The position numbers and the translations under genes were made by a program. Positions 13,494 through 63,225 of a DNA stretch of 64,000 nucleotides are shown here, one piece after another; the first letter of the stretch is position 1, and each line of letters starts with the position of its first letter. Origin of the DNA: an uncultured virus (IMG/VR IMGVR_UViG_3300022555_003212). Its lineage: Duplodnaviria; Heunggongvirae; Uroviricota; Caudoviricetes. A model generated the notes under the pieces. The model was not told the DNA's origin and did not search any database. It saw nothing but the letters and a program-made list of their open reading frames with translations. The stretch lies in IMG/VR virus record IMGVR_UViG_3300022555_003212; one strand, 5' to 3'.

Positions 13494-13771
13494 TGATTAT
13501 CAAAATTTATTTTAGCTAATTTAATTCTTCGTAATTCTGACAAAGATACAAAATATTCTTCAAAATCATCGTCAATATAGAAATATTCCCTATGATTTGT
13601 TACTGGATCACATAATACTACAACTGAATATAAAGTTGAATCATATCCTTGCTGATGAACATCAACTATATTATAAATCTCACCTTCAATAAAATCTTGC
13701 ATAATTGATATTCCAAATCCACTCAAATCTGGGTGTGATTTTATACATTTAACCTTATCACCGATTTTCAT
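13481..13771 (-). CDS. SH3/KOW-like protein, RxxKLxxI tail
   Basis: MKIGDKVKC...LRRIKLAKI. Confidence 0.75.
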   Translation of the reverse strand: MKIGDKVKCIKSHPDLSGFGISIMQDFIEGEIYNIVDVHQQGYDSTLYSVVVLCDPVTNHREYFYIDDDFEEYFVSLSELRRIKLAKINFDNQCSK

Positions 13772-20300: not shown

Positions 20301-20345
20301 GACAAAACTTGTGTGGGCTTTAATTATAAAATTGTTGTTCAACAT
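14394..20345 (-). CDS. multi-domain glycosyltransferase/methyltransferase/deacetylase (1983 aa)
   Basis: GT4 (RSEGWNLPLIEALACG), SAM-MTase (LEIAAGYG), GT2 (SIVTPFFN, DDFSTD), DxD GT-like (WLDGDC), PIG-L (AHPDDE, GEYGH), GT2-like (CDDD), C-terminal MTase (EIGSFAG, YLDAAH). Confidence 0.85.
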   Translation of the reverse strand: MLNNNFIIKAHTSFVGQTGYNAHARDFFTELSKIVQVKVRNFTVGEVWNGLSATPHEDEKYMTDYQRSLMCEQTVIKGSEPNKGSFYDAPIYSGLNFPKDNLVHIILNETNHHYFFQLDKYGSDFKIAYNVWESTLQPENYFNALLKYDQLWVPTEWQRQCSINQGYPAERVYVVPEAVDGKMFNPEPFNNDLELYKDNRFKFIIFGRWDYRKSTREIIDTFLKTFKKEEPVDLIISVDNPYAVDGCETTEQRLKEYKLEDDRIKILHFLGRKEYVDYLRNGHVFLSCARSEGWNLPLIEALACGTPSIYSDWGAQLEFAKGKGHPVKVVEERPAKEGLEFSYGYGAKLIEGNHGFKSQEGIPGNYIEPDFDDLSKVMRDVYENYWEYKEKAIADSELVRNEFSWENTAKKAYNIITESYEKFQSQPKAQQQVSVQSTVKQYDNVEEQRKWNDPSLWNNDGENWGNSFNLWNNVIFPKISNYVSGKDTLEIAAGYGRLTKHLLDHTKSLSIVELNDNCIKRCRERFGDKIKEYAINNGKTLSMFNDNSFDFIFSWDSFVHMNKEVIDSYLKEIKRVLRSGGYAIIHHSFFSGGNIESFKNKAGRSNMSPDVFNEMLIKYGLELISQEDYHVEETDTISIFKNPNTNNVKFSIVTPFFNAENYVDETIQSVIDQTYTDWEMIVTDDFSTDNTKSKIMQWAVKDSRIKYIEQKEKREIYWNPHKYANGEFVVSLDADDAFLPVALEVLSNTFKNNPEVVYVHANSNHYNENINDESFIRPRYTKMYKFFQNFLDYHQYYVKYNEFRFGETWGGVRAFRNILPKTYSFEQGMDLQLGKHDDLLEILKFEELGKILYLGRVIHNVRMRVTSNTALKKELEFDKIWPFVLERRKNLQLSEPTISRKYDSIWENVYSIYYSSLNKQASRRCVSILNSEYTDSEKALFREIYFDHNIIFDGYTPDVDYYFINGYNVDVIAEQLSNIRNTVVKNTEIVIESKMFESEPDLVVFDGNDIQGTIKPELVKYFSFRWHVYANSYFYAIINLEVKKMTLDEISKISPELIPSLIKNTSQTIAPTIAPIITPTIAPTNANFVFLTGGDINYLPAVERCVKSLEVFSTIPVIVYGFNCDVNFNYPNMLFSRRVDTTLEHKFGRDTRLYYSKIYASIDCIEKDPTKTYIWLDGDCIATKNIDRIKTFGSMLENYPLCMRYKHDTLVHWRTIDGVKQEKYHGEELGTLLDVKRNMNFTVATGLYMFDLRSMTFLKKVIEIHEAIVDVNPENCSDDMALAEERLFNCLFWKYNYKRFMPITWLSKDYHTDYLPKYMEILDNKKFDIMYDFTDEDNINEVSDNKIIFYHGQRNPQIADKFLEDYKISLNTPADKLMIVAHPDDETIFGGGMILKETGWKVLVVTDGSGDNNDSKVRQNEFENAMLKLGVSDYEFLNYPDALSTIPYNESDVERDIADTINSRKFTKIVTHNENGEYGHIIHKSVHNIVKKINPDNLYFFTDEAQQLDDIIYQNKIRILKTYKSQVTDLPGFHKYLQFEGVKKKSDTSPTMVRGRVIAQMATIPSRRSILMNAVNSILPQVDELHITLNGYSISEIPYELVASDKITYKITNNDIGDAYKFYDVDKRNGYVVICDDDFIYPPNFVEYMISKVEKYDRKAIIGLHGRKMPPRPITTYWAVEPYKSLDDVIGDQKVDVIATCATVYHSSTLKISLDDFNGAKTCGFFNADIWFSCIAQEQKVDMIVAEHSSDFLKYLSPSGGTVWDQYTIAKDKEICDVYNSYFTIVGDFYGERTEDAIDRILSTARMFYHPYDYNDQNNNCHGLYELIKDNVTPDFRICEIGSFAGVSSELFALHCKELYCIDRWNSYLDMREGGHIDIDKLIESEKQFDIMKEKYDNIIKIKNDSLQACGLFGDNVFDLVYLDAAHDYDNVKAEIAAWYPKIKTGGFLSGHDINDDGVKRAVEEMVGINYKTYPDDSWIIKK
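17095..17148 (-). repeat. 12-bp degenerate tandem repeat encoding a TIAP linker
   Basis: QTIAPTIAPIITPTIAPT. Confidence 0.7.
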
Positions 20346-27743: not shown

Positions 27744-27958
27744 TAAAATGCAGATGTAAATGCAGGGAAGAACATTTTGAATCGGTTTCTCACAGGACAA
27801 TACGGTGTCTGTTACAAAGAAATGAACGATGTACAAGATTGTGTAAGTTCATTTTAACGGTTATAAAATGGCTAACTGGGCTTACAGTTGATGCTGATTT
27901 TGATGAAAGCTCACTATTAAATGATAAATGGAGAGATGGAATACGTCAAGCAAGATAA
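27740..27958 (+). CDS. small Cys-rich hypothetical protein
   Basis: ATGA overlap. Confidence 0.5.
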   Translation: MIKCRCKCREEHFESVSHRTIRCLLQRNERCTRLCKFILTVIKWLTGLTVDADFDESSLLNDKWRDGIRQAR

Positions 27959-28436
27959 AAATTATACATGCGCTAATGCATGCTTTAGAATGGTGCTATC
28001 AGCTCAGGGATTACCTGACGTTGAAGAATCTGTTTTAGAGGGTATGATGGGCACTTTGCCTGAATGTGGCACTGGATATCAGGGTATGGTTGACGCTGCT
28101 CATCAATTCTGTCTGGAGTGTGTCTACGGTGAAAATGGCACCGTTGAATTAATAGATAATCTGACCCGCAGCGGATGGACTGTTGTTGTAGCACTCAGTG
28201 TTGATGTACCTCACTATGCCGTCTATCAAGAAAATAATGGTAATCATTTATTTCTTGCTGATCCGTTCTTTGGAGAAAGCGTTCCTCATTTAATAAATAA
28301 ATTTAAAAGAGCTACTTGGCTTGTTGATACTCATAGGTATACAAGGGCTGTTAAGGAATCCAATTTGAAGTTCGACAACAACATAAACACCAAGGGCTGG
28401 TATGTTGCCTACAAAAAAAACTATGAAAATCGGTGA
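27921..28436 (+). CDS. C39-like cysteine peptidase
   Basis: QDKNYTCANA (Q..C), PHYAV (H), ADP. Confidence 0.75.
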   Translation: MINGEMEYVKQDKNYTCANACFRMVLSAQGLPDVEESVLEGMMGTLPECGTGYQGMVDAAHQFCLECVYGENGTVELIDNLTRSGWTVVVALSVDVPHYAVYQENNGNHLFLADPFFGESVPHLINKFKRATWLVDTHRYTRAVKESNLKFDNNINTKGWYVAYKKNYENR

Positions 28437-33793: not shown

Positions 33794-34399
33794 ATGATTT
33801 ATAATTATGCAAAATTTAACGAAAGTGTATTAAATTCATTGAAGCCAACAGTTGAATTAGATTTTCCTGATCTAAGGCAAGAATTCAACTATGATTGTGG
33901 TGTTACTTGTTTTCAGCAAGTACTTATTTACTATGGGATAGAAAAAAGAGAGGATGAATTAATAAAATTATTGAGCACAGAAAAAACCAGTATAATTGAA
34001 CATGGTACAAAATTATCAAAAATGATTGAAGTTGCCAAGTATTATGGATTAGAAGCCGAAATTCTTAGAAATTCTTCAATAAAAAAGATAAAAGAATTAC
34101 TGGACGAAAAAATTCCATCAATTTTATTATTACAAGCATGGCGTGATTATTCTGTTGACAACTTAGATTGGGAAAAAGATTATCACGATGGGCACTATGT
34201 TGTGGCGGTTGGTTACAACGACACCAGAATATTTTTTGAGGACCCATCATCAGTTGTCCGAACATACTTAACGTATGAAGAGCTTGAAAAAAGATGGCAT
34301 GACGTTGATGATAACAATAAAACAAAGAATCACCACGTTGCCGTGGTGATCCGAGGAGAAAAGAAATATAAAGGTGACGATATCGTTCACATGGATTAA
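33794..34399 (+). CDS. N-tagged C39-like cysteine peptidase
   Basis: MIYNYAKFNE; QEFNYDCG, GHYVV, EDP. Confidence 0.8.
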   Translation: MIYNYAKFNESVLNSLKPTVELDFPDLRQEFNYDCGVTCFQQVLIYYGIEKREDELIKLLSTEKTSIIEHGTKLSKMIEVAKYYGLEAEILRNSSIKKIKELLDEKIPSILLLQAWRDYSVDNLDWEKDYHDGHYVVAVGYNDTRIFFEDPSSVVRTYLTYEELEKRWHDVDDNNKTKNHHVAVVIRGEKKYKGDDIVHMD

Positions 34400-35516: not shown

Positions 35517-35801
35517 TTATTTTTCTAAACTCTCAGTTTGCAGGTCCACTCGACCTTCAATTTGATTCATTTTTTCTTTTCTGATTTGTGATAATGGCTT
35601 GAACCATGCTTGATCAATCCAGCTATATCCATTCCAACTATCAAAATCATCATCGGCTTTTTTAAGTTTATATGTAAAATCGTTATTATCGATCATAGTT
35701 ACAATATAATCCTTACCTTCTTCATAGTGCTGAGGCGGAGATATTGGCGGTTTTGGGTTAACATTAGTTGAAAATATGACTTTATCACCTACATTGACCA
35801 T
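35517..35801 (-). CDS. SH3/KOW-like protein, RxxKMxxI tail
   Basis: VGDKVI...IRKEKMNQI. Confidence 0.7.
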   Translation of the reverse strand: MVNVGDKVIFSTNVNPKPPISPPQHYEEGKDYIVTMIDNNDFTYKLKKADDDFDSWNGYSWIDQAWFKPLSQIRKEKMNQIEGRVDLQTESLEK

Positions 35802-41711: not shown

Positions 41712-42195
41712 TTAACTTATCCAATTTTATTTTTCTAACTTCCTTAGACGCATCATCAAATTTTGATTCTGGTAAAAGTTCCCATGGTCTATTTTTATAT
41801 TCATCTTTCTTGGAGCACCATTCACATAAAATGGTTATCCAGCCAGAAGTTTTTCCAACTTTATGAGTATCCCCACATTCTTCACATATATGGTATGACA
41901 AATGCTCAGCAAATCTAACCATACCTGTTATAACTGCATCTCCTCCATCATAATAAAATGATAGTCTACCAAACTTTTCTTTAATTGTAGTTGCAACTAT
42001 TTGTTTTACAGGGTTAGCTTGTTGATTCCAATCAATATAAGATTGAATGTTACAGCATAAATTTTCTATAAGCCAAAACCATCCATCCCTACATTGAAAT
42101 CCAAATCCCATTCCAGATTGCTTCATTGAAGCATATCTATCAATAAATATTTTTGGATACTTTTGAACTAAATAGTTATCTAAATCTTTCCGCAT
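41698..42195 (-). CDS. phage protein with Zn finger, RxxKLxxL tail
   Basis: KEKFGRL, CEECG, CEWC; VRKIKLDKL. Confidence 0.75.
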   Translation of the reverse strand: MRKDLDNYLVQKYPKIFIDRYASMKQSGMGFGFQCRDGWFWLIENLCCNIQSYIDWNQQANPVKQIVATTIKEKFGRLSFYYDGGDAVITGMVRFAEHLSYHICEECGDTHKVGKTSGWITILCEWCSKKDEYKNRPWELLPESKFDDASKEVRKIKLDKLSEGI

Positions 42196-42422
42196 TTTTT
42201 TAATTTCTTTAATTTTTCTTTTCTTTGATATTTTATATCAAAATGAGCTGGGTGATAATATAGGAAATCATGGTGGTCAATCTCTATTAAGACATAATCC
42301 AGACCGTTTTTGTGTTGAATATCTTTGACAACATATTCTTGACCAACAATTAAAAACGCAGACATTGTATCTTCGTGTGGGTCATAACGTGATACACATT
42401 TAATTTTATCCCCTATCTTCAT
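42180..42422 (-). CDS. SH3/KOW-like protein, RxxKLxxL tail
   Basis: MKIGDKIKC...QRKEKLKKL. Confidence 0.75.
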   Translation of the reverse strand: MKIGDKIKCVSRYDPHEDTMSAFLIVGQEYVVKDIQHKNGLDYVLIEIDHHDFLYYHPAHFDIKYQRKEKLKKLKKCGKI

Positions 42423-42905: not shown

Positions 42906-43262
42906 TTATACTTCGATTTTGTCTTTAAGTTTGTTTAATTTTAAGACTCTTACCTTACTTTTTGAGTATATTTTAATCGCAGTTTTTAAATATTCGTTGT
43001 TGCTGCTATCTTGAATTATAACTTGCAATTGATTAGTATCATCTAAAAAAGAATACGAATTATATCCACTTGCTTGACGAAATTTATTACCTGGATAAAA
43101 TTTTGAAGCTACACCTATTATTTCATATAATTTTCCATATGACATATTTAGTGAGGTGCACCCTGTTTGACCATACCAGATTATTTTTGTCTTTTCTTTT
43201 GCTATCTTTGAATGATCTAAAAATTCAACATAATAACCAACTTCAAATAATTTTTCAAACAT
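42906..43262 (-). CDS. hypothetical, RxxKLxxL tail
   Basis: VRVLKLNKL. Confidence 0.75.
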   Translation of the reverse strand: MFEKLFEVGYYVEFLDHSKIAKEKTKIIWYGQTGCTSLNMSYGKLYEIIGVASKFYPGNKFRQASGYNSYSFLDDTNQLQVIIQDSSNNEYLKTAIKIYSKSKVRVLKLNKLKDKIEV

Positions 43263-43524
43263 CGTCCAATTTTTTTAATTTTGCCATCCTCATTTCCTTT
43301 TCAGTATAAAAATAATCCCAAAGGTAATTATAATTTTTCTGATTAGACCTAATATTAAATATGGTTGGTGGAGGCTCAGGTTTATCAAAAATCCAAACCA
43401 TTCCAAATCCCATTGGTGTAATATTTGTATCAGAAATATAATATATTTGATCCTTCCAAAAAATACGTTTCCCGTCAAGAATTAAAATTTTCTTACAGGT
43501 AAGCTTATCTCCTATTTTTAACAT
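43255..43524 (-). CDS. SH3/KOW-like protein, RxxKLxxL tail
   Basis: IGDKLTC...MRMAKLKKL. Confidence 0.75.
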   Translation of the reverse strand: MLKIGDKLTCKKILILDGKRIFWKDQIYYISDTNITPMGFGMVWIFDKPEPPPTIFNIRSNQKNYNYLWDYFYTEKEMRMAKLKKLDDV

Positions 43525-48015: not shown

Positions 48016-48070
48016 ATGATTACACTATTCGAAGCCGAAAGGAAAAATATTTAACCAATTTGATTTATGA
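48016..48070 (+). pseudogene. empty tag-only cassette
   Basis: MITLFEAERK joined out of frame to KIFNQFDL-stop. Confidence 0.7.
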
Positions 48071-51095: not shown

Positions 51096-51443
51096 ATGAT
51101 AACACAATTTAAGGTATTTGAATCAATAGATATTCCACAAGAGGATGATTATGTTTATTTTGTCATACCAGACTTGAAATATCCAGACGGAACACATAAA
51201 AGAGATAGTGTTTCAGGATTTGGTAAGATTAGGCATTATATTCCAAAATCAAATTGGCAATATTTTGTCGATGATGTAAATCATATACCAGATGTTAAAC
51301 CAATATTAACAGACTACACTTTTGATGATGGATTAAATAATACAGAACATGGGGAGTATGTTAAAAAAGATGAAATAAAATATTGGGGTAAAACATTAAA
51401 GGATGTTCAGAGAAAAATGTCAGAAGATAGATTTGATTTATGA
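51096..51443 (+). CDS. N-tag + FDL-tail protein
   Basis: MITQFKVFE...DRFDL. Confidence 0.8.
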   Translation: MITQFKVFESIDIPQEDDYVYFVIPDLKYPDGTHKRDSVSGFGKIRHYIPKSNWQYFVDDVNHIPDVKPILTDYTFDDGLNNTEHGEYVKKDEIKYWGKTLKDVQRKMSEDRFDL

Positions 51444-51790
51444 TAACACAATTTAAAATATTTGAATCACTTAATTCTGGTGAGATAGAAGCTGGCGATT
51501 ATGCTATATGTGAATGCCTTAATAAGGGATTTGAACCATTAAATTTATTTTTGAAAGGTGCAATAGGTAGAATTGCGCACGTTGAAGAAGAGTGGAAAAA
51601 TTATAAATATAAGGTAATATACGATGAGGTACCATATTTTGTTGCTGGAATATTTTTTCAAATAGAACGAGCACTTGATTCATCATATATAAAATATGTT
51701 AGATATTTTAAATTGGATGAAATTAAATTTTACTCAAATAATAAACAGGATTTGATTACTCACCTTAAAGCAACTCAATTTGATCTATGA
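51440..51790 (+). CDS. N-tag + FDL-tail protein
   Basis: MITQFKIFE...TQFDL. Confidence 0.8.
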   Translation: MITQFKIFESLNSGEIEAGDYAICECLNKGFEPLNLFLKGAIGRIAHVEEEWKNYKYKVIYDEVPYFVAGIFFQIERALDSSYIKYVRYFKLDEIKFYSNNKQDLITHLKATQFDL

Positions 51791-52116
51791 TAACTAAATT
51801 CAACTTATTCGAAAAGTATTCCGCAATTATAGATAATAATATATATCATGAGGATGATTATATTATATACTATACATCATTTAAAGATTTGAGGATAATT
51901 AAAATTTCTGTAATAACAACAGATTTCGATGATATCCACGCATTAGTATGTCGTATAATTAAAACAACTGAGGGTGATGATTATATCGGTATGAAAGTTG
52001 CACTTGAACAAAATTACATTAAAGATAATATTAGACCCATAATTATAACTGATGATTTGGCTAAAGCTGAAGCCGAATATGATAAAGAAATGACTAAAAA
52101 AAGATTTGATTTATAA
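51787..52116 (+). CDS. N-tag + FDL-tail protein
   Basis: MITKFNLFE...KRFDL. Confidence 0.8.
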   Translation: MITKFNLFEKYSAIIDNNIYHEDDYIIYYTSFKDLRIIKISVITTDFDDIHALVCRIIKTTEGDDYIGMKVALEQNYIKDNIRPIIITDDLAKAEAEYDKEMTKKRFDL

Positions 52117-52670
52117 TGGAACTATTAGATGGAATGTTAGATAGAATATTGATGGAAGGACATATTGGATGGTTTGAAGACAGACAGGCTAAATTTATTG
52201 AAATTATTAAGGATTTAAAACCAAAGAATATAATTGAAATTGGATATAATGCTGGTCATTCAGCATTATTGATTTGCCAAAATTCTCCAGTTGATAATCT
52301 TTATATTTTTGATATAAATACGCATCATTATACAATACCTAATTATAATGTGTTTAAGAACGCATATCCAGACAAAAATATAGTTTTCACTGAAGGATCA
52401 ACAATAGATACACTTAAACCATTTATGGATGCGTATGATGGAGAATTATTCGATTTTGTTGAGGTTGATGGTGGTCATACAACTGATCTGGTGTTAAATG
52501 ATGTTTATTCTACTTGGAATAAAATTAGATCGGGAGGAATTATATATATTGATGACTATAATGCAAGCAGATTTAATAGTCCAGAAGTTGATGCTGGGGT
52601 AGATTCAATTGATTGGTCTAAGTTTGATACATTCAGCGTGGATGGAATATTTTGGGCGATAAAAAAATAA
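52116..52670 (+). CDS. class I SAM-dependent methyltransferase (Methyltransf_24-like)
   Basis: IEIGYNAGHS, VDGGH, GGIIYIDDY. Confidence 0.85.
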   Translation: MELLDGMLDRILMEGHIGWFEDRQAKFIEIIKDLKPKNIIEIGYNAGHSALLICQNSPVDNLYIFDINTHHYTIPNYNVFKNAYPDKNIVFTEGSTIDTLKPFMDAYDGELFDFVEVDGGHTTDLVLNDVYSTWNKIRSGGIIYIDDYNASRFNSPEVDAGVDSIDWSKFDTFSVDGIFWAIKK

Positions 52671-52674
52671 ATAT

Positions 52675-53019
52675 ATGATAACAATATTTGAAACATATAA
52701 GTCTAAACCAAGAGTTGGTGATTATGTAATCTGCCAAGATTCACTTAGCCAAACATATTGTGATCTTAATTATTATTTATTAAGTCATATTGGACAAATT
52801 ATTACATGGGAAACTTCTGGGGATACCCTTGATATTAATGTTGGTAGTCAAGTATATATGGTTTCTTATGAAAATGTTCCAGATGATGTTAGTCACTTTT
52901 TTAAAATGGATGATGATGGTATGATAGTAAGATCATTCTGGCGTAAAGAAATGATCTATTGGTCACCAGTTAAAAAAGATGTTGAGCGGTATTTAACTCA
53001 ACAAAGATTTGATTTGTAA
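52675..53019 (+). CDS. N-tag + FDL-tail protein
   Basis: MITIFE...QRFDL. Confidence 0.8.
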   Translation: MITIFETYKSKPRVGDYVICQDSLSQTYCDLNYYLLSHIGQIITWETSGDTLDINVGSQVYMVSYENVPDDVSHFFKMDDDGMIVRSFWRKEMIYWSPVKKDVERYLTQQRFDL

Positions 53020-53074
53020 AAAACTCCAGTCCAACTAATTCAAAAAGTTATTATGATTTTTAATATATATCTTC

Positions 53075-53365
53075 ATGATAACGAAATTACATTTATTTGA
53101 AGCAATCAACCAAACATTAATGCCAGAAAAAGATGATTATGTTATCTGTGATGTTGTTGACCCATCTATTCCAGATACAACTAATGTGATTGGTAAAATT
53201 ATTAGTATTTCTGACTCTGGGATTGAACCTGTTTTTAAAGTAAAATTTGATGAATGGGAAGAAGATAGAAACACGTGGCCCGTTCTTGAACCAGAGATTA
53301 AAATGTGGTGTAAAAATCGTAAAGAACTTAAAAAAATATTAACACAACGTAGATTTGACCTATGA
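53075..53365 (+). CDS. N-tag + FDL-tail protein
   Basis: MITKLHLFE...RRFDL. Confidence 0.8.
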   Translation: MITKLHLFEAINQTLMPEKDDYVICDVVDPSIPDTTNVIGKIISISDSGIEPVFKVKFDEWEEDRNTWPVLEPEIKMWCKNRKELKKILTQRRFDL

Positions 53366-53715
53366 TAACAAAATTTAAAATATTTGAAAAAGTACACTGT
53401 GAAATACAGCTTGAAGGTGAATTCCCAAAAATTGGAGATTTTGTAATTTGTAGGGAATCAATTAATGCCCTAATTGATGAATTTTTATCTACTCATGTCG
53501 GTGAAATTGTTGGCACTGGTGGGCTATTACCATACACTGTATCATTCGGGTTAATAGAAAATCTTCCAGACTATATGAAATCATACTTTAACGGTAATCT
53601 GATTAAAGTCGAGGGACTCGCTGTAAGAGATTTTGAATCATGGGATATTGTCAATTGGAGCACACATAAAAAGGATTTGGAGTCCCATATCACATCAAAA
53701 AGATTTGATTTATGA
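53362..53715 (+). CDS. N-tag + FDL-tail protein
   Basis: MITKFKIFE...KRFDL. Confidence 0.8.
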   Translation: MITKFKIFEKVHCEIQLEGEFPKIGDFVICRESINALIDEFLSTHVGEIVGTGGLLPYTVSFGLIENLPDYMKSYFNGNLIKVEGLAVRDFESWDIVNWSTHKKDLESHITSKRFDL

Positions 53716-54026
53716 AATATATTAAAGCATTTGAATTTGTTAAGGTTGTGCGGCAGTCTGATGAGCGTCCTGAGGAAAAGAATTATATTATAGCACGAGC
53801 ACCTGTTGGAGGTGATTCTTCAATAGACTATTATCTAAGAACAACAATCGGTCAAATTATTGAAGTTCATCCTGACTCAGGCACCAGAGAATTTGATTAT
53901 AAAGTTAGGTATGATAAGCCGCCATACAATAATGTACGGTGGGTTTCTTACCCAGAAATTTTATTTTGGTCATCAAATAAAAAAGAACTTGAATCACAAT
54001 TAAAAGCATCAAGATTTGACTTATGA
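53712..54026 (+). CDS. N-tag + FDL-tail protein
   Basis: MKYIKAFE...SRFDL. Confidence 0.8.
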   Translation: MKYIKAFEFVKVVRQSDERPEEKNYIIARAPVGGDSSIDYYLRTTIGQIIEVHPDSGTREFDYKVRYDKPPYNNVRWVSYPEILFWSSNKKELESQLKASRFDL

Positions 54027-54575
54027 TAATTCAATTCAAATTATTTGAAAATGCAACAGTTAATGTGGGTGATTACATAATCAATTGGTTTATAATCCCA
54101 GTAATAAACAAGATAATCACCAACCTTGAGACTATTCATAAACGAAACAACTTGAGCATTCCGTTTATCCAAATCTTCTTTATTGTGAGGTACTCCCCAC
54201 CCGTCATCGTATAATACAATACAAAAAGGAAATCAATTCGATTTATGAAATATTTGAAATATTTTGAAATTAACAATATATCTGATATAGATTTATGCAT
54301 ACAACTTTTTCAACATATGCACTCCATCCATTAAAATCGTCTGCACCATCAGGATAAAGGTTTGAAAGTTCTTTAAAATAAAAAACTGGATAATCTCCAT
54401 CATGATCAGAGTGGATACGTTTAATTTTTGTCAACTTAATTAAATGCGGTACTGTGCGAAACGTGATACTATAACAAGAGATATCGAAGAAGCTTGGCTT
54501 GTATACAATGATTTGCTACCTAAACTTCAGAAGATACGTCAGCAAATGCTGACCCAAAACAAATTCGATTTATGA
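54023..54575 (+). pseudogene. two scrambled tag-family genes with inverted interiors
   Basis: tags intact on + (MIIQFKLFE, GNQFDL, MKYLKYFE, NKFDL); 54077-54214 and 54293-54474 read as coding on -. Confidence 0.8.
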
Positions 54576-54934
54576 TAACAGATTTCAAAATATTTGAGAA
54601 TAAAAATATAGAATTTGAAGTTCTATGTGTTCGAGAACCATTAGTAAATAAAGGTTTTGATTTCGAAGTTGGTAACAAATACAAATTCAGTACAAATTTG
54701 GGACGTGCCCTTAGAAACTATAAACCTCACCTAAAAAAAGAGCACAAAGGAAATATAACAGATGGTAAAGGTAATCAAATAGTATCATTTATCGTACAAG
54801 ATTCTATTGATGATGTGCAAGAATTTATTCTTAGCGGTGGTGATGAAAGAAATCCAAATTCATTTTTATTCACAAAAGATCAGTCATTATTGGATTATCA
54901 AAAAAGATGTAAATTTAAAAGATTCGATCTGTAA
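54572..54934 (+). CDS. N-tag + FDL-tail protein
   Basis: MITDFKIFE...KRFDL. Confidence 0.8.
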   Translation: MITDFKIFENKNIEFEVLCVREPLVNKGFDFEVGNKYKFSTNLGRALRNYKPHLKKEHKGNITDGKGNQIVSFIVQDSIDDVQEFILSGGDERNPNSFLFTKDQSLLDYQKRCKFKRFDL

Positions 54935-54985
54935 TATATTAAACATTACGCACAATTTTGTGTAAAATTTTTAATATATAAATTT

Positions 54986-55474
54986 ATGAAATATCTTAAA
55001 TCTTACGAAAATAGATTTGATGACAATTATGAGATAAGATCAGATGGTATGTTTATACAAAAGCCTAAGATCGAACCAATAATAGATATTACTGGTTCAA
55101 TGAAAACCAACAATAGTAAGTGGGCGTTTCTGTGCATTATTTCAAAAGATACAGATAAATTCAGAGTTGGAAAACTGTATTTATTTTCACCAAATCCAAC
55201 CACAGAATCACTTGGGGTGATAGAAGATAATATCGGTAGAAACCATACAGCCAAAGTATATTCTGATACTGAGAATAAAACAAAAACTAAAGAATGTATA
55301 TTAGATGATTATGTTGATGATTTTTTGTTTACTGCCGATAAGTCAATAAGAGAATATATTTTAAGAAATAAAATAAATGGAATGGAAGAATTTAATAAGC
55401 TTTCTAAAATGTCTAAGGCTGAAAGAAATGATCTAATTAAAAAGAATAAAATGATAGATAGATTTGATTTATGA
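54986..55474 (+). CDS. N-tag + FDL-tail protein
   Basis: MKYLKSYE...DRFDL. Confidence 0.8.
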   Translation: MKYLKSYENRFDDNYEIRSDGMFIQKPKIEPIIDITGSMKTNNSKWAFLCIISKDTDKFRVGKLYLFSPNPTTESLGVIEDNIGRNHTAKVYSDTENKTKTKECILDDYVDDFLFTADKSIREYILRNKINGMEEFNKLSKMSKAERNDLIKKNKMIDRFDL

Positions 55475-55730
55475 ACTAAAAAATAATCAAACTGCCATGT
55501 TCCACGCTGAACCTATAACAAAAGACACAATCTACACAAACTTAATGAAGAAAGCATTATCAAAACCTCAGGTGAACGACTTATTGGATATACTTTCTAA
55601 CATTATTAAAGGCGATTCCGCCTATTACATTAGTACCGATGACGGTGAATTCATAATGTATCTTAGTGAATTGAAAAATAAAAGAATAATAAATAAGAAA
55701 TTGCCAAAAAAATTATTTAAACAATCATGA
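55464..55730 (+). pseudogene. probably 5'-truncated gene
   Basis: frame opens inside the upstream GATTTATGA; the overlapping ATG gives only MN-stop. Confidence 0.4.
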
Positions 55731-55742
55731 ACATATTACATA

Positions 55743-55949
55743 TGAACTACTACGACACTAAAGATGTCGTAGTTTCTACGCCACAAGCACAATGTAACCA
55801 TTCACTTTGAGTGACGCTGGGTTTGTTCCTCAACCCAAAATTTCTTATATAATCGTAAAAGTCATTTTTTTCTAAAAATAATTTCAATATGTTCGTCAAA
55901 ATTCATCAACGATGCTAAAGACATCGTTGTTTTCTTTTGACAGACTTTT
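55743..55949 (-). mobile_element. non-autonomous IS200/IS605-type miniature element
   Basis: two subterminal hairpins with the same CTAAAGA loop (55749-55773, 55907-55929); minus-strand end ..TAGTTCA; no tnpA/tnpB. Confidence 0.65.
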
Positions 55950-55984
55950 ATAAAAACCATGTTGAAAAAATAATATATACAACA

Positions 55985-56056
55985 TATACGATCATTAGGA
56001 CCGTTATAGCTTCGGCTATGAGCTAATTAGAATTCGCTACTCTAATTAGCTCTTTT
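55985..56056 (+). ncRNA. candidate small RNA
   Basis: ATATATA box, C(UUCG)G hairpin 56006-56019, 12-bp hairpin 56020-56052 plus U-tract. Confidence 0.5.
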
Positions 56057-56084
56057 AATTTGTATTTTTTTTTATATATACCAT

Positions 56085-56567
56085 ATGATAACCAATTTCA
56101 AAATATTTGAAGATAACACTGAAGAACCACTTTATCTTTTTACTATATTTGATTTGGAAGAAGTAGTTAGAACTATTCAAACTATTCAAACTAATAAATT
56201 TAATAAGATTTCGATGTTATTTGATTCAACACTGGGTATACTAAAAAGTCTTATTGGTTCAAAGATTAAAATCCCAGCATATTATGATAAGTTTTTTTTA
56301 ATATCCGTAAGATTAAAAACCCCTGAAGAATATCAATCTTCTACTGGTACATATATCTTTTCATTTATTGAAGATACTGGAGGCTATTCACAGTCTTTAA
56401 TAGATTGGAAACATGGTGATAATAGTGCTGAAAGTGATTGTCCAAATAATAGCTATAATGAAATAATTGAAGTGTTTTCCACATCTAAACCAGAGCCAAA
56501 TGAAATATTAGAAATTACTACAAAAAGGATTAAACAAAGACGCACAGAAAAAAAATTCGATTTATGA
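56085..56567 (+). CDS. N-tag + FDL-tail protein
   Basis: MITNFKIFE...KKFDL. Confidence 0.8.
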   Translation: MITNFKIFEDNTEEPLYLFTIFDLEEVVRTIQTIQTNKFNKISMLFDSTLGILKSLIGSKIKIPAYYDKFFLISVRLKTPEEYQSSTGTYIFSFIEDTGGYSQSLIDWKHGDNSAESDCPNNSYNEIIEVFSTSKPEPNEILEITTKRIKQRRTEKKFDL

Positions 56568-56608
56568 GGTATATTAAAAATTTTGAATCAATAAATGATC
56601 CACTTTAG
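56564..56608 (+). pseudogene. orphan N-tag stub
   Basis: MRYIKNFESINDPL-stop. Confidence 0.65.
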
Positions 56609-57558
56609 CGGTTAAAGAAGAAGCTTTGATTCCGATAAGCCATTCCAAGCCGCTCAGCAAAAGTTTTATCTGAAGTTGAATCCCCAACCATGACGCATGA
56701 TTTCAAGTCTAATTTATGCTTGTGCATCATCAAAATTCCATTACCAGACTGCGGCTTTCTGCAATAACAAGTATCCTTTGGTGGTAAATGTGGGCAGAAG
56801 CAATAATCATCGATCAGATTGCCCAGCAATGAATTGGTGTGCTCAATAAGCTCTTTTACTTTTTTTGTGGTTAGTGTACCCTTTGCAATTCCAGATTGAT
56901 TCGTTACAGCAATTATTTTATACCCATCAGCTTTGTATTTTTTTAAAACTTCGATGCTATTTTCCAAAATTACAATATCATCAATTTCAATTGGATATTG
57001 CTCAGAACCTATACTTCTCCGTACTGTACCGTCAAGATCAACAAACAATGCCTTATTAGTGTAGCCAAAGTTATCATTCCGTACAAACTTGGTGGTTTCT
57101 ACCTGATCAAACCCTTCAGTCAATGTAGCCCTTTCAAAATTCTTATTCATTGCGAATATCGGTGTTATGACGAACAAGTTTGGCTGAGCTTTTAAATTTG
57201 ATGGAATATCCTTGATGTGCATATAAATTTCACCACACCGTTCAAACATACGGTTTAATGAATTTATTAAGCAGTCGTCTTTTGATGTGAACATATAATG
57301 AGCCCCGATAGTTAAATTATGAGCTTGAGCATAATCAATAAATCTTTTTCGGGTATCTTTAGTTGTGTTTGTATTATCTATAACAACCTTTTTACCACGT
57401 TTTATTTCACGATCCAATGATACAGTTTCGATTGCAGAAGACATTGTTTTCTTATCGCAGCTAATAATAGTGTAGCCAAGGTTTTCATACTCTTTGCTTA
57501 TGGAACTTTTTCCTGATGCTGGTAAGCCTATCATTAGGATAATATCAGTTGTTAGCAT
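56605..57558 (-). CDS. polynucleotide kinase / 3'-phosphatase (P-loop kinase + HAD)
   Basis: GLPASGKS, IDNTN, DLDGTV, TNQSG, RKP, MVGD. Confidence 0.85.
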   Translation of the reverse strand: MLTTDIILMIGLPASGKSSISKEYENLGYTIISCDKKTMSSAIETVSLDREIKRGKKVVIDNTNTTKDTRKRFIDYAQAHNLTIGAHYMFTSKDDCLINSLNRMFERCGEIYMHIKDIPSNLKAQPNLFVITPIFAMNKNFERATLTEGFDQVETTKFVRNDNFGYTNKALFVDLDGTVRRSIGSEQYPIEIDDIVILENSIEVLKKYKADGYKIIAVTNQSGIAKGTLTTKKVKELIEHTNSLLGNLIDDYCFCPHLPPKDTCYCRKPQSGNGILMMHKHKLDLKSCVMVGDSTSDKTFAERLGMAYRNQSFFFNR

Positions 57559-58364: not shown

Positions 58365-58697
58365 ATGATCACACAATTTAATTTATTCGAAACTGTATAT
58401 CCAGCATTTACCGAGCAAGTGCTTTGTGTTATGTCATTATTTATCGTGGATGAGTGTGAATTAAGATACACTGAAGGCACTCAATACACCTCAGATGTAT
58501 ATTATCATAATGGAACAAAATATAGAATGATAATCGATGATGGTGGTAAAAAAATACCAATGCATGAACATCAAAAATTAAATAATTTATTTTATGTTAA
58601 ATCATCTGCAACACATCAATACATTGCATACTTTACAAAAGATAAAAGTATGGAAGAATATAAAAAAAGAATATCACAAGAACGATTCGATTTATGA
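58365..58697 (+). CDS. N-tag + FDL-tail protein
   Basis: MITQFNLFE...ERFDL. Confidence 0.8.
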   Translation: MITQFNLFETVYPAFTEQVLCVMSLFIVDECELRYTEGTQYTSDVYYHNGTKYRMIIDDGGKKIPMHEHQKLNNLFYVKSSATHQYIAYFTKDKSMEEYKKRISQERFDL

Positions 58698-59038
58698 GAT
58701 ATTTAAAAGCATTTGAAGACAACGACAAACCAAGAATTTCAGGCTTTGGGCCTAATGATTTTCTTTGTACATATTCTAACTGCGCTGAATTTATAAAAGG
58801 TAAAATATATACTGGAATATCGTGGCGTAGAGATAATAATGATATCGAAGGAAAGATTGAAGGAGAAAATAAATCATGGGTTGAAGTCCAAATGTCAAAC
58901 AAAGAAAATGGTACATTTGAATATAAGTTTGTAATATCTTCAGCTAAGCCGCCAATTTGGAAAAATGCATACTTTACTCAGGATATTAGTGTCGAAGAGT
59001 TTAGAGCTAAAAAAAGAATGGCAAGATTCGATCTATGA
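58694..59038 (+). CDS. N-tag + FDL-tail protein
   Basis: MRYLKAFE...ARFDL. Confidence 0.8.
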   Translation: MRYLKAFEDNDKPRISGFGPNDFLCTYSNCAEFIKGKIYTGISWRRDNNDIEGKIEGENKSWVEVQMSNKENGTFEYKFVISSAKPPIWKNAYFTQDISVEEFRAKKRMARFDL

Positions 59039-59406
59039 AATATTTAATCAAATTTGAATCGCATTCACTGGATATTATAGAAAATGATATGACTGGTAGT
59101 AATCCTAAAAAGTTTGGTGATTTAAATGTTAAATTAAATGATTATATTGTTATAACTTGGGAAGACTCAAGTTCTGGTTGTTATATTCTAAAGGTTATTG
59201 ATATTATTGCGGCTAATCATAATATTGATTATATCAGATATAGAGTACAAATAGTGTTACCTAATGAAGAAGATAGAGACATGGAAAAAATGCTTTATGC
59301 AGATCAAGAATCAATTAATTGGTATGTTCTTTATCTTGGACAAGATTATGATAAAGCATTAAATTCTTTTAATAGACGAACTACTGAAATAAAATTCGAT
59401 TTATAA
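59035..59406 (+). CDS. N-tag + FDL-tail protein
   Basis: MKYLIKFE...IKFDL. Confidence 0.8.
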   Translation: MKYLIKFESHSLDIIENDMTGSNPKKFGDLNVKLNDYIVITWEDSSSGCYILKVIDIIAANHNIDYIRYRVQIVLPNEEDRDMEKMLYADQESINWYVLYLGQDYDKALNSFNRRTTEIKFDL

Positions 59407-59856
59407 CGGATCACGTTTAAAATCTCTGTATTTATAAGAAGAAATTTTTCTTTGTATTTCCCACTCGTTAGTTGAAATTCCACGAGGTGCCTCCCCGCCA
59501 TCTGTCATATTAAATCCATTTACTTTTGAGTCATATACTTTAATATAAAATACCTCGCCTCTCATGCATTCTAATAGTGTTCCTATGTATAATTTATCCC
59601 ATATAAAATCGTTCCAACCATACTTTCTTAAAGCCGCCATGAATTTTCTATTACTTTTTCCTCGCATATCGTTAAAATGCCCATCTTTTCTTTCATCTAA
59701 ATCGTATGTTATTCCAATATAACATTCCCCCGTAGTTAAACAAAGTGCTTTGTATAATACCATGTGGTATAACCTACCTAACATATGTTCTTCTTTTGTA
59801 ATTCTACCAGATTCCTCTAAGTCCTTTAATGCTGTCTTATTAATAATGCCTATCAT
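59401..59856 (-). CDS. GIY-YIG endonuclease
   Basis: VLYK...YIGIT..ERK.GH..ALRKYG..E..YI..GFNMTDGG. Confidence 0.8.
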   Translation of the reverse strand: MIGIINKTALKDLEESGRITKEEHMLGRLYHMVLYKALCLTTGECYIGITYDLDERKDGHFNDMRGKSNRKFMAALRKYGWNDFIWDKLYIGTLLECMRGEVFYIKVYDSKVNGFNMTDGGEAPRGISTNEWEIQRKISSYKYRDFKRDPL

Positions 59857-59945
59857 ACTCTAAATATTTTTCATCTATATATTTGAATTACCTGGGCTTC
59901 TTTTTAAGTACTCATTTTCTATGCTTGAAATTAATATATAGATGG

Positions 59946-60299
59946 ATGATAACAGAATTTAGACTATTTGAAACATTAAATCCGTCAACTCCTACAGTTG
60001 GTGATTATGTTATTATGAAAAAAGAATTTGTCGATATTTTAGATAATTTCACTCGTAATAATATTGGTCAATTTATTGATATAGAACAAAATGCACCTAA
60101 TGATTTTAGATATATAGTTGAGTTTGATACAGAAATACCAAAAGAAATTTCAGGGTGGTTTTATGCTCATGGCGGAAAAAAAGAAAATCGCAGAAAATAT
60201 AGGGTGACGGACTTTTCAGATAGCCAGCCATTTGAATACTGGTCGGAAGATAAGAAGGAATTAGAAGCAGTTTTAAAAGGAAAACAATTTGATTTATGA
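59946..60299 (+). CDS. N-tag + FDL-tail protein
   Basis: MITEFRLFE...KQFDL. Confidence 0.8.
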   Translation: MITEFRLFETLNPSTPTVGDYVIMKKEFVDILDNFTRNNIGQFIDIEQNAPNDFRYIVEFDTEIPKEISGWFYAHGGKKENRRKYRVTDFSDSQPFEYWSEDKKELEAVLKGKQFDL

Positions 60300-60568
60300 T
60301 AACAGATTTTAAGTTATTTGAAAATATAGATGATTACGCTACTTGGAAGGAAGGAGATGAGGTTTATTGCATAAATGATAAAGATTGGGATAATGGATTA
60401 GTTGATGAACTCACACTGGGGAATAAATATAAAATACAATCAGCCGCTTATTTAAACCCAAATTATGAAATTTGGACTGTTAATATAGATAACGCTGTGT
60501 TTAGAGCAAATAGGTTTACTAAAAATACTCAGCATCCAGTACTATTACAAAAAAGATTTGATTTATGA
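60296..60568 (+). CDS. N-tag + SH3-like + FDL-tail protein
   Basis: MITDFKLFE..GDEVYC..KRFDL; paralog of 30772. Confidence 0.8.
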   Translation: MITDFKLFENIDDYATWKEGDEVYCINDKDWDNGLVDELTLGNKYKIQSAAYLNPNYEIWTVNIDNAVFRANRFTKNTQHPVLLQKRFDL

Positions 60569-60894
60569 TAACAGATTTTAAAATTTTTGAGAAACAAGAT
60601 GATGAGTATGTTACATGCGTCAAATCAGATGGGCGTAGAAGCTGGATAACTGTTGGTAAACAATATAAATTACTTCGGCACATGAAAAAAAGTCAAATAG
60701 GCGAAGATTATGAGGTGATTCGAGTTCGAGGTGATAGTGGTAGTTCATTTGAAGTAAGAAGTATATCAGACGGAAGATTAAAACCACCACCCTATGTTTC
60801 ATATTATTGTTATCCATACGATGATGTTTTATTTTCAAATGAAACACCTGAGCAATACAATAAAAGAATGACAGAAACAAGATTTGACCTATGA
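60565..60894 (+). CDS. N-tag + FDL-tail protein
   Basis: MITDFKIFE...TRFDL. Confidence 0.8.
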   Translation: MITDFKIFEKQDDEYVTCVKSDGRRSWITVGKQYKLLRHMKKSQIGEDYEVIRVRGDSGSSFEVRSISDGRLKPPPYVSYYCYPYDDVLFSNETPEQYNKRMTETRFDL

Positions 60895-61208
60895 AATATA
60901 TTAAGCAATTTGAAACAGTAACAGATTCAAAATATTTATTATGTGTTTTGGGGGACGAATCCAGTATGGAATCTTTCAAGTATGGTAAAAAATATAAAAT
61001 CGAAAAATATGGTGTTGCATATGTTACAGTGTATGATGATTGGAATAATCAGCGTAATATTTATAAAACTTCTCAATTGAGTGATATTGCCACAATGGAC
61101 GAATTAAAAAATTATGAATATTTTTATTCTGCTAATTCGATATTCACAACAGATAAATCAATAGAAGATTATGAAAAAAGAAAGGTACAAGCCAGATTTG
61201 ATCTATGA
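60891..61208 (+). CDS. N-tag + FDL-tail protein
   Basis: MKYIKQFE...ARFDL. Confidence 0.8.
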   Translation: MKYIKQFETVTDSKYLLCVLGDESSMESFKYGKKYKIEKYGVAYVTVYDDWNNQRNIYKTSQLSDIATMDELKNYEYFYSANSIFTTDKSIEDYEKRKVQARFDL

Positions 61209-61552
61209 TAACTGAGTTTAAAATGTTTGAGGTTAATAGTAGTGAGCCACAAATAAACGATTATGGGATTGCAAATATTGATAATACTGGTTCACCAGAA
61301 TATTTAAAGGAATTTATTAAAAATAGCATATGCCAAATAATTAATGTAAAAGAAGGTAAAGATTCATTTACGAATTTTCCTTATGTTGTTAAATATTTTA
61401 AAATTCCGACAGATATTCTATATGCATTCGAATCTGCTAATAGAACAAAAAATACAGGTCTAAGGTGGCTTAAATTAGATGATCTTAAATATTGGTCTCC
61501 AAATAAAAAAGATATGGAAAAAATACTAATACAAAAAAGATTTGATTTATGA
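61205..61552 (+). CDS. N-tag + FDL-tail protein
   Basis: MITEFKMFE...KRFDL. Confidence 0.8.
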   Translation: MITEFKMFEVNSSEPQINDYGIANIDNTGSPEYLKEFIKNSICQIINVKEGKDSFTNFPYVVKYFKIPTDILYAFESANRTKNTGLRWLKLDDLKYWSPNKKDMEKILIQKRFDL

Positions 61553-61941
61553 AATATATTAAAACATTTGAATCTATCAATCTAAATTCAATTAAAACTG
61601 ATATGCTTTATACAATAACTCAATTTGGGTCAGATGAGGTTGCTGTATGCCAATTATCGTTAATTGATGACGAATATTCTTATAATAGATCGTTATCATG
61701 GCTTGGTTGGTATCATGATGTAGAAGACACAAATAGAATTTTAGATATGAATGTTGGAGATTCCATTGAGGTTGGAAGCTCATCAGTAGAAATAATTACT
61801 GCAATAAAATACGATTCAGAGCTGCCAATAGAAACATCAGGTGGTTTGAATTGGGGTACCAACCCAAAGGAAGAGATAGCTACACCTGAAGTGATAGCGA
61901 AATACAACAGAAAACGTTTGCAAAAAAGATTCGATCTATAA
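61549..61941 (+). CDS. N-tag + FDL-tail protein
   Basis: MKYIKTFE...KRFDL. Confidence 0.8.
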   Translation: MKYIKTFESINLNSIKTDMLYTITQFGSDEVAVCQLSLIDDEYSYNRSLSWLGWYHDVEDTNRILDMNVGDSIEVGSSSVEIITAIKYDSELPIETSGGLNWGTNPKEEIATPEVIAKYNRKRLQKRFDL

Positions 61942-62478
61942 CTTCTTACCAATCTTATCCAATAATGTCAATGGTATCAGCACCATTAAATCTTTTCTAC
62001 CATCTTTTTCACGCTGATAAAGCTTATAAAGATTCTTAACTGGGTCAATATGACCATTTTCTTTTACAATATATGTACAATAATTTAAAAACACTTTTTT
62101 TACAACCTCTTCCAGCAATTCTGTTCTTTTAACCAGTGTGTATTCATCACCCCTATCAAATGCCATATAATCTGCTTCCCCAAACATCCAGCCTTCGTGT
62201 CCAGTTATTCCAACAAATTCTATCCAAGTATAATCTTTTGACAATGGTTCGGATTTATTCACTCTTTTTTCACCTTTAACTTCAACTTTTATAGTTTTTC
62301 CTGATGAATTAGTAACCTTAAAATCAAAATGTTCATAAATGTTTTGGCGGTCACTTGAATCAATCACATTTAAGCCTTTAGATTCAGCATAAGTTCTGAA
62401 TTTTTCTTCTACTTCTTTACCATACTTTTTATCTTTTGCATAAATCATACATATTAGATTGTTTTTATGTATATACAT
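61936..62478 (-). CDS. PD-(D/E)xK nuclease-like protein
   Basis: GKEVE..HFDF...VEVKG..WIEF..GWMFGEADY; start uncertain. Confidence 0.6.
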   Translation of the reverse strand: MYIHKNNLICMIYAKDKKYGKEVEEKFRTYAESKGLNVIDSSDRQNIYEHFDFKVTNSSGKTIKVEVKGEKRVNKSEPLSKDYTWIEFVGITGHEGWMFGEADYMAFDRGDEYTLVKRTELLEEVVKKVFLNYCTYIVKENGHIDPVKNLYKLYQREKDGRKDLMVLIPLTLLDKIGKKL

Positions 62479-62521
62479 AGTTAGATATGATAAATAAGTT
62501 TTCGTTTTAAATATATACTGT

Positions 62522-62878
62522 ATGATCAAAATATTTGAAGATTTTGTTTTATATAAACTTGATTTAAAAAAAGGTGATTATGTTGTCACCTACAGGGAAA
62601 AATTTTTGGATGCTTTATTCTTAAGAATGATTGACGTGGATACTAAGCACGGCAATTCTTTAGGCGATCATCAATATCACTGGGACATAATTGATTCTGT
62701 TGGGTGGGAAAAGAACCCTGATCTTATGAAGGGTAGAACACGTTGGATGTTTTTGCCAAACACCGAGACTGAAACACTATTATACTCTGGATCGATCTAT
62801 GGTAAAGCTCAGGATGCATTTGATCAAGCAAAATTAACTATACAAAGACTGGCAAGTACGAGGAGGTTTGACTTATGA
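62522..62878 (+). CDS. N-tag + FDL-tail protein
   Basis: MIKIFE...RRFDL. Confidence 0.8.
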   Translation: MIKIFEDFVLYKLDLKKGDYVVTYREKFLDALFLRMIDVDTKHGNSLGDHQYHWDIIDSVGWEKNPDLMKGRTRWMFLPNTETETLLYSGSIYGKAQDAFDQAKLTIQRLASTRRFDL

Positions 62879-63225
62879 TAACTAATTTCAAACTATTTGA
62901 AACCAATTTGGTTCATACCATCGTTAAAGATAAATTTCTCTGTGTTAAATCTGATGCCCCCGAATTTACGGCTGGTAAAATTTATGATTGCTATGAAGAA
63001 AAATCCAATTTTATACTAATCGTAAATGATCATGGTCGAGAAGAAAAAATAATTGAGAATCATTGGTTGTTCAATAAAAAACATAATACAATTTCAACTC
63101 ACCACTATTCATACATGAAGCAAACATCATCAGTTACAGCAAATTTTTTGTATGCCTATTTTATGAAGAATAAAACGTTAGAAGAATATGAAAAAATGCA
63201 AAGAGAAAAAAGATTTGATTTATAA
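62875..63225 (+). CDS. N-tag + FDL-tail protein
   Basis: MITNFKLFE...KRFDL. Confidence 0.8.
   Translation: MITNFKLFETNLVHTIVKDKFLCVKSDAPEFTAGKIYDCYEEKSNFILIVNDHGREEKIIENHWLFNKKHNTISTHHYSYMKQTSSVTANFLYAYFMKNKTLEEYEKMQREKRFDL

Follow-up and report, generated by a model that had tools for sequence, protein, structure and literature searches.

Two neighboring genes of an uncultured virus have been scrambled by breaks inside their coding sequences, and the parts of one of them, now dispersed over both genes and both strands, can still be reassembled into an uninterrupted 154-aa reading frame. This observation, first made in an initial annotation of the DNA, is confirmed here well beyond chance. 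The locus consists of two pseudogenes and, as it stands, provides no evidence of a new diversification mechanism. A single conservative rearrangement with five breaks and illegitimate joining, now fixed in the phage lineage, is the probable origin of the arrangement.

The window, by which we mean the whole 64-kb stretch of DNA that was analyzed (G+C content, 30%), corresponds in reverse complement to a portion of a 175,979-nt metagenome contig (L006; 100% identity over 19,930 nt). Its source looks like a large freshwater phage. Matches to PHROGs (E ≤ 1e-5) were obtained for 8 of the 25 larger open reading frames (ORFs), including an endonuclease, a polynucleotide kinase, and phrog_7313, and the Pfam domains in the window include LAGLIDADG and GIY-YIG homing endonucleases, R2K ATP-grasp, PTH2, NUDIX, and a Pnkp-like domain. 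The 14 runs that carry the stretch, from seven studies, are freshwater or lake water metagenomes.

Both scrambled genes belong to a family of about 48 small genes (90 to 270 aa) located between 5404 and 63892 (e.g., 51096 to 55474 and 58365 to 63225). The family consensus is an N-terminal tag (N-tag), M-(I/K)-x-x-(F/L)-K-x-F-E, a C-terminal tag (C-tag), (R/K/Q)FDL-stop, and an ATGA overlap with the next gene, the last seen in many members. In most of these genes the N-tag reads MITxFKxFE or MKYLKxFE, and the C-tag ends 48 of the 125 window ORFs of at least 60 aa. The bodies between the tags are nearly unalignable, with a mean column identity of 9%. Codons of the C-tag vary synonymously (TTT/TTC, GAT/GAC, TTA/CTA/CTT/TTG), so that the tag is kept as protein rather than as a DNA site. 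The family has no entry in Pfam or PHROGs, both of which were searched.

Within one run of this family, the intact genes at 53712 to 54026 and 54572 to 54934 enclose two tag-delimited units, here called genes A and B, that lack an intact ORF. Plus-strand ORFs of these units measure 63, 29, and 43 aa, and there are minus-strand stop-to-stop frames of 63 aa (54041..54232) and 81 aa (54270..54515). The four plus-strand tags lie where the initial annotation had placed them: MIIQFKLFE from 54023, KGNQFDL-stop to 54248, MKYLKYFE from 54245, and NKFDL-stop to 54575. The parts of the locus, with reference to two homologs described below (P0002 and P0003), are as follows:

51096..55474, plus strand: run of tag-family genes in which the scrambled pair is the sole broken stretch

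52116-52670: methyltransferase gene interposed in this run

54023..54080, plus strand: N-terminal remnant of gene A (MIIQFKLFE... to VGDYI), with a codon score of +6.8 bits in the plus frame

54077..54214, minus strand: piece X, residues 17 to 62 of gene B (LYDDGW...KPIDY), now lying within gene A in inverted orientation

54210..54248, plus strand: C-terminal remnant of gene A (YNTIQKGNQFDL-stop), an orphan C-tag; P0003 has ...KMYNAIQF there

54245..54296, plus strand: N-terminal part of gene B (MKYLKYFEINNISDID plus TTAT at 54293-54296), whose N-tag equals P0003 residues 118 to 125 (MKYLKYFE)

54293..54474, minus strand: piece Y of gene B, (Y)SITF...VVCI, inverted in place between TTAT at 54293-54296 and ATAA at 54471-54474

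54471..54575, plus strand: C-terminal part of gene B ((I)TRDIEEAW...LTQNKFDL-stop), matching P0002 residues 131 to 171 and P0003 residues 232 to 272

The derived order is therefore A-N, -X, (A-C + B-N), -Y, B-C. Piece X, bounded by ATAA at 54077-54080 and ATAA at 54211-54214, occupies the place of the gene A body, and the open frame ahead of the orphan C-tag of gene A is only 19 aa long. Joining 54245-54292 (plus), 54077-54214 (minus), 54297-54470 (minus), and 54471-54575 (plus) gives 465 nt that encode 154 aa and a stop, with no internal stop. The seamless ORF that had been claimed was reproduced in this way once the common 4-mers were merged, as the claim had specified; abutted without merging, at the raw coordinates first given for them, pieces 3 and 4 do not stay in frame. 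The breakpoint words were also found as described (ATAA at 54077, 54211, and 54471; TTAT at 54293).

Homologous proteins preserve the order that the reassembly predicts. Searched against 5.8 billion proteins, the 63-aa minus-strand frame identified two proteins of greater length: P0002, with 171 aa (encoded on a 2567-nt contig), and P0003, with 272 aa (encoded on a 48,410-nt contig). The 81-aa frame recovered P0002 again among 1.84 billion representative proteins, and a search seeded with P0002 returned only these two. In both homologs the N-tag (MQYLTYFE or MKYLKYFE, the latter in P0003), X, Y, and the C-terminal tail follow one another on one strand, colinear with the reassembled ORF, and both family tags are present in all three proteins. 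Piece X shares 80% amino acid identity with P0002 and 74% with P0003 (E = 1e-19 to 1e-20), and piece Y shares 59% (E = 9e-20) and 48% (E = 6e-14), respectively, all on the minus strand. The C-terminal tail matches on the plus strand (E = 4e-11 for P0002 and 2e-11 for P0003), and the last 14 residues are identical between P0003 and the window tail at 54475-54575. Using tblastn, P0002 fell into three blocks on the window: residues 32 to 77 ran from 54208 to 54071 (minus; E = 1.6e-20), residues 75 to 138 from 54473 to 54294 (minus; E = 9e-20), and residues 131 to 171 from 54450 to 54572 (plus; E = 4e-11). P0003 gave the same pattern. Given colinear homologs and blocks oriented minus, minus, and plus, one piece has indeed inverted in place and the other sits inverted inside the neighboring gene. 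Alignment of the three proteins required no gap at the joins ...PIDY|SITF... and ...VVCI|TRD...; the B N-tag|X' join falls in a variable, acidic linker, in which the reassembled protein exceeds the homologs by 5 aa.

P0003 also reveals what gene A has lost. Its first 117 residues correspond to gene A, read through into gene B. It starts (M)GDYIKY where the window has VGDYI, and its gene A part ends ...YNAIQF where the window has YNTIQKGNQFDL. Genes A and B of this relative thus form one 272-aa protein in which ...YNAIQF is followed directly by MKYLKYFE (residues 110 to 125), and the FDL-stop/ATGA junction between A and B seems to have been lost there. Homology of gene A to the relative ends at or in ATAA 54077-54080. 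The body of gene A (P0003 residues ~5 to 110, ~100 aa) had no match anywhere in the 64-kb window (tblastn; best E > 1), so that the missing body noted in the initial annotation is absent from the window and present in the relative.

We searched several collections for further relatives. An intact relative was found neither by tblastn against GenBank phages nor in the genome_contigs collection. In viral_contigs, five records (L001 to L004 and L007) gave chance matches of 9 to 13 residues only; L001 and L003 were rejected as relatives since their matches fall in an unrelated 733-aa protein. The metagenome_contigs collection contained only L006, the window's own contig, and a contig from a different metagenome (L005), both scrambled. 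No intact copy of the window's own gene B allele was present in the protein databases searched, no second locus of the gene in the contig collection searched, and no significant match to piece X or Y elsewhere in the window (best E = 0.015). The 81-aa frame also hit P0004 (E = 3e-9), but this 1778-aa ankyrin/STAND protein had no match to P0002 and was dropped as spurious. Blastn of 52000-57000 against phages gave one uninformative 344-nt match (65.6%) to an unannotated uncultured-phage record.

At the nucleotide level, contig 25 of run X8 (3381 nt) comes from a relative whose flanks are 96 to 98.5% identical to the window and lie on one strand (53034-54006, 35 differences; 54489-55500, 15 differences). 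In this contig the segment 54077-54143 lies on the strand opposite to the flanks, and its match starts exactly at 54077. The flanks are separated by 789 nt, versus 482 nt in the window (~307 nt more), with spacings of 210 nt from tail to piece and 512 nt from piece to left flank. These spacings fit the series C-tail, Y', X', B N-tag, A C-tag, A body, and A N-tag at P0003 lengths. Like P0003, the contig encodes PKFLKIR, owing to substitutions at 54525, 54528, and 54529. By this geometry, the window lineage has lost ~307 nt, the body of gene A, and has X and Y flipped relative to the X8 relative. A gap in the X8 contig cover over 54344-54427 at 80% likeness was not used as evidence.

The junctions themselves share a single word. 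On the plus strand they read ATAA (54077-54080), ATAA (54211-54214), TTAT (54293-54296), and ATAA (54471-54474). The X'|Y' site, a Tyr codon with its preceding base (TTAT), is now present in two copies, one closing X and one opening Y; likewise, the Y'|tail site, an Ile codon with its next base (ATAA), now both closes Y and opens the tail. Because the fifth base differs on each side at both sites, the overlap is exactly 4 nt. The ancestral sites would have been ATAA and ATAA in gene A and TTAT, TTAT, and ATAA in gene B, those in A and at the B N-tag being placed by protein alignment and contig geometry. Gene B was partitioned without loss or gain of any base, and three of the five break sites (all three in B) were used in two junctions each.

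Seamless joins with 4-nt overlaps and re-used sites force all five sites to one word, and the shared word is therefore one observation rather than four independent coincidences. Moreover, the word is a common one. ATAA/TTAT ranks fifth in frequency among the 4-mers of the window (1686 copies, one per 38 nt, close to the base-composition expectation of ~2.6% of positions), and 5 of its 18 copies in the 553-nt region served as break sites. A 4-nt identity at a random pair has a probability of 0.0074 per junction. The overlaps are thus not due to chance, and joining used microhomology or cohesive ends. On inspection, no longer context was shared around the five sites; only sites a1 and b2 have GTGAT in common, three bases away, which is not beyond chance. 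Among the repeats and pairs listed there was no G+C-rich hairpin beside the break sites and no inverted pair longer than 4 nt linking ~54290 with ~54475 around piece Y. If the 4-nt ends were staggered, an ATAA end would pair with a TTAT end at all four joins, making a single cut-and-rejoin event chemically consistent. By our own derivation, the minimum path is three reversals and one deletion, four template switches, or one five-break event.

The analysis shows directly which pieces there are, how they are ordered and oriented, that they overlap by 4 nt, that the gene A body has been lost, and that the form exists in nature. We infer that a single concerted accident, and not a programmed system or a series of four events, produced it. 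In the ancestor, gene A (N-tag, ~100-aa body, C-tag) and gene B (154 to 155 aa) would have been intact neighbors. Breaks would then have occurred at two ATAA copies in A and at two TTAT copies followed by an ATAA copy in B, five sites that share a single 4-nt word, and the ends would have been rejoined conservatively, overlapping by these 4 nt. Of the two inner pieces of B, the first would have inverted into A and replaced the body of A, which was lost, and the second would have inverted where it was located. Both genes are now dead, and the arrangement is fixed in the lineage. Several breaks could have been misjoined via compatible 4-nt ends, or replication could have run off and re-primed with template switches, as in events of the MMBIR kind. 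Type II topoisomerases, which make 4-nt staggered cuts, would be one candidate for the breakage. The minus-strand frames are still open, which fits a fairly recent event.

As outlined in its source, the MMBIR model covers complex events with inverted pieces, deletions, and junction microhomology of 2 to 5 bp (PMC2621351). The locus resembles such MMBIR/FoSTeS events in its four junctions, two inverted pieces, and ~307 nt lost, in a microhomology of 4 nt per junction, within the 2 to 5 bp of that outline (PMC2621351), and in the repeats (the tags) near its junctions. It differs in having no duplicated or templated DNA, each part of B being found once by tblastn, in re-using three sites in both directions, which is more like cut-and-rejoin than copying, and in residing in a phage rather than a cellular chromosome. 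Judged by title or start of abstract, none of the papers listed in literature searches on scrambled phage genes and microhomology inversions in phage genomes described such a case. The locus is a rare, cleanly resolved example of a natural multi-break, microhomology-joined rearrangement inside phage genes. Derived and ancestral-type forms both survive in lake metagenomes, which allows an almost base-by-base reconstruction of the event. The locus shows that large paralog arrays of big phages are remodeled by intragenic breaks too, besides exchange at conserved gene ends.

A series of independent events is the alternative that fares best, although we consider it unlikely. Three inversions and one deletion, each through illegitimate crossing-over between 4-nt ATAA/TTAT repeats, would have accumulated in a gene pair that was already dispensable. 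Inversions between inverted repeats are conservative by nature, which would account for the seamless joins. By our own derivation, four steps at the observed sites alone suffice, and other family members have decayed, as indicated by orphan C-tags ending at 11327, 11341, and 48070. However, this path needs four rare events that re-use a few sites among 18 copies, no intermediate was seen among the matches listed (run contigs only), and both pieces have kept their old frames entirely free of stops.

The initial annotation had gone further and proposed a tetranucleotide-directed shuffling process that diversifies bodies between fixed tags. Its reconstruction, the inversions, the missing body, and the ATAA/TTAT word at all junctions hold, and its interpretation is to that extent partly supported; the directed process is not, and at the level of contigs nothing positive supports a programmed system. 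Under that proposal an enzyme would recurrently reshuffle tag-family bodies by cutting and rejoining at TTAT/ATAA, and the scrambled pair would be one reversible state, comparable to a shufflon or a ciliate scrambled gene. Several features speak for it: one word at all five sites, conservative joins as in site-specific recombination, three sites used twice each, a location within a hypervariable multigene array, and gene B alleles that are far more divergent (48 to 80% amino acid identity) than their flanks (96 to 98.5% nucleotide identity). Yet we find the proposal highly doubtful. A single shared word is what the seamless topology forces, the word is common with most of its regional copies left unused, and the sites show neither an extended motif nor, among the pairs listed, a flanking inverted repeat. 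The product is two broken genes with no new body, neither state made here being a working gene. Instead of varying, the same arrangement recurs letter for letter across contigs of several studies and years (L005 and contigs of three other studies), with no strand-change joints at the junctions among the joints listed. Of the enzymes sought, no recombinase or TnpA was present among the 127 window ORFs, with no match to resolvase, integrase, or transposase families (Pfam, E ≤ 0.001) and none to Y1_Tnp in the 64-kb window. A whole-window scan for orphan tags and strand flips in codon score found no second scramble of the TTAT type, and the sole other rearrangement in the window has a 1-nt overlap and no TTAT.

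The predicted structure of the protein also speaks against a shuffling device. An AlphaFold model of P0002 (47-row alignment; mean pLDDT, 68.5) contains a helix at residues 41 to 57, strands at 63 to 70, 80 to 97, 102 to 111, and 135 to 139, and a helix at 142 to 168. On this model the breaks map to about residues 77 and 138/139, where they divide a single small predicted beta domain instead of separating modules. A fold search with the model gave no match at E ≤ 0.001; its best rows were chromo-barrel, Tudor, and SH3-like small barrels (E ~0.1), a hint only.

Two points run counter to a simple accident. All three B sites were used twice with no base lost or duplicated. Template switching of low processivity does not usually leave such a result, which hints at defined cuts, as such exact re-use seems to require defined breaks. 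In addition, at least three inversions and a deletion, or four template switches, are a lot within ~800 nt. It is conceivable, if very improbable, that the five ATAA/TTAT sites were cut by one activity leaving compatible 4-nt ends and that such events recur in tag-family arrays. A type II topoisomerase-like enzyme or another staggered nuclease, of phage or host, would be a candidate. Were this so, phages would own a DNA-shuffling route that permutes gene-internal segments via 4-nt "pointers" like those of ciliate scrambled genes, and the scrambled pair might be reversible. The locus offers a concrete place where read-level data could test recurrence.

Known systems that rearrange or shuffle genes resemble the locus in part. 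Shufflons and invertase switches (Rci/sfx of IncI plasmids; Hin/Gin/Cin) use a dedicated recombinase and inverted sites of ~19 to 26 bp, and a working protein is encoded in every state. The locus shares with them gene-internal segments inverted between fixed ends and conservative joins. It differs in its 4-nt sites, the lack of a recombinase in the window, and its broken genes; piece Y is flanked only by TTAT...ATAA, with no ~19-bp inverted repeat among the pairs listed. In the MDS/pointer system of Oxytricha, ciliates unscramble their genes through an RNA-guided developmental program. Here, too, pieces are permuted and inverted, with matching pointers (TTAT, TTAT, and ATAA) at the three internal joins, but nothing suggests that the phage ever reassembles the gene. 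In T4-type phages, PeSLs reportedly allow whole genes to be swapped by homology at conserved cassettes. Those hyperplastic regions likewise have repeated conserved junction sequences framing variable small genes, whereas the breaks described here fall inside genes at 4-nt words. Unlike IS200/IS605-type tetranucleotide-directed transposition of single-stranded DNA, the locus has no Y1 transposase in the window and no G+C-rich hairpins among the repeats listed.

The scrambled form is real in nature and is no assembly artifact. L005, a 2910-nt contig, agrees with the window in every base over 53373-54895 and differs from it at only three positions, all within 53369-53372 at the edge of the homology. 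One 1170-nt contig from run X6 spans 53676-54845 without differences, two contigs from run X2 (53362-54121 and 54131-54993) bridge all four junctions without differences, and one contig from run X7 bridges the junction at 54077 (31-nt rule). Contigs with the scrambled form come from studies P2, P3, and P4 (dated 2016 to 2020), which are other than the probable source study. The X2, X6, and X7 contigs show one state only, per-run contigs being of a kind that drops rare variants. Tag-to-tag "joints" in the contigs (sides of 22 to 41 nt, 80% likeness) were discarded as reflecting repeated tags, not rearrangements.

This recurrence makes it extremely unlikely that the arrangement arose in vitro or in the assembler. 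In the account given by PMC1855051, chimeras from multiple displacement amplification (MDA) are mostly inverted sequences with intervening deletions, joined at 2 to 21 nt of complementarity. The scrambled form resembles them in its inverted segments, its deletion, and its short complementary junctions (PMC1855051). However, MDA chimeras arise in vitro, at random, and in a library-specific manner, and the letter-for-letter recurrence of all four junctions, checked base by base in L005 and the X2 and X6 contigs and seen in per-run contigs of P2, P3, and P4, is not expected of a random chimera.

The homology of L005 to the window ends inside an N-tag (window ~53367-53375). Beyond it, at 1533-2910 of the contig, lies a 389-aa gene of the nitronate monooxygenase family (Pfam NMO, E = 7e-50) on the other strand; this short contig either is chimeric or represents another genomic context.

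Codon usage independently identified the interiors as minus-strand coding sequence, as originally claimed, in agreement with homology. Open-frame length was rejected as evidence, since antisense open runs of such length are common in the window's genes (71 runs of at least 63 codons in 57,165 nt). Instead, we scored codon log-odds. Piece 54077-54214 reached +18.1 bits on the minus strand versus -22.5 bits in the best plus frame (an advantage of 40.5 bits), and piece 54293-54474 reached +13.7 versus -27.5 bits (41.2 bits). Both advantages are within the range of real genes (means, 26.5 and 36.8 bits), and an equal antisense advantage occurred in 0 of 1156 and 0 of 974 control windows of the same sizes inside real genes. 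An alternative reading, in which these frames are antisense ORFs open by chance or independent genes of the minus strand and the plus-strand tags are unrelated remnants, draws on the abundance of long antisense frames in AT-rich DNA but is practically negligible against these scores and the matches (E = 1e-14 to 1e-20) to proteins that run N-tag, X, Y, and C-tail on one strand.

Other parts of the window show decay and rearrangement of their own. Positions 11019-11168 copy 12174-12323 (80.7%), and 11168-11295 copy 12846-12973 (94.5%), both in direct orientation. The source consists of minus-strand genes, with 522 nt between the two stretches skipped, and the overlap at the inner junction is 1 nt (T), not TTAT. 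The copy lies in a decayed tag-family unit with the orphan C-tags ending at 11327 and 11341. Another orphan C-tag (...KGKIFNQFDL-stop) at 48023-48070, with a 16-aa open frame only and just ahead of a gene starting at 48067, is probably another decayed family member.

Several neighbors of the tag-family genes were also recorded. A GIY-YIG homing endonuclease gene (59404-59856, minus strand) lies inside a plus-strand run of the family, and a LAGLIDADG endonuclease gene is found farther left (7677-8471, plus strand). Two peptidase C39-like genes (27921-28436 and 33794-34399) adjoin tag-family runs. Glycosyltransferase families 1 and 2 occur together with a PIG-L deacetylase domain and three methyltransferase-type domains in a 1983-aa ORF at 14394-20345 (minus strand). 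Finally, M..(V/I)GD.V.C is found at the start of several other small ORFs (13233-13771, 35517-35801, 42180-42422, and 43255-43524). Many members of the family carry this motif behind the N-tag, and it may mark a common small beta-barrel core.
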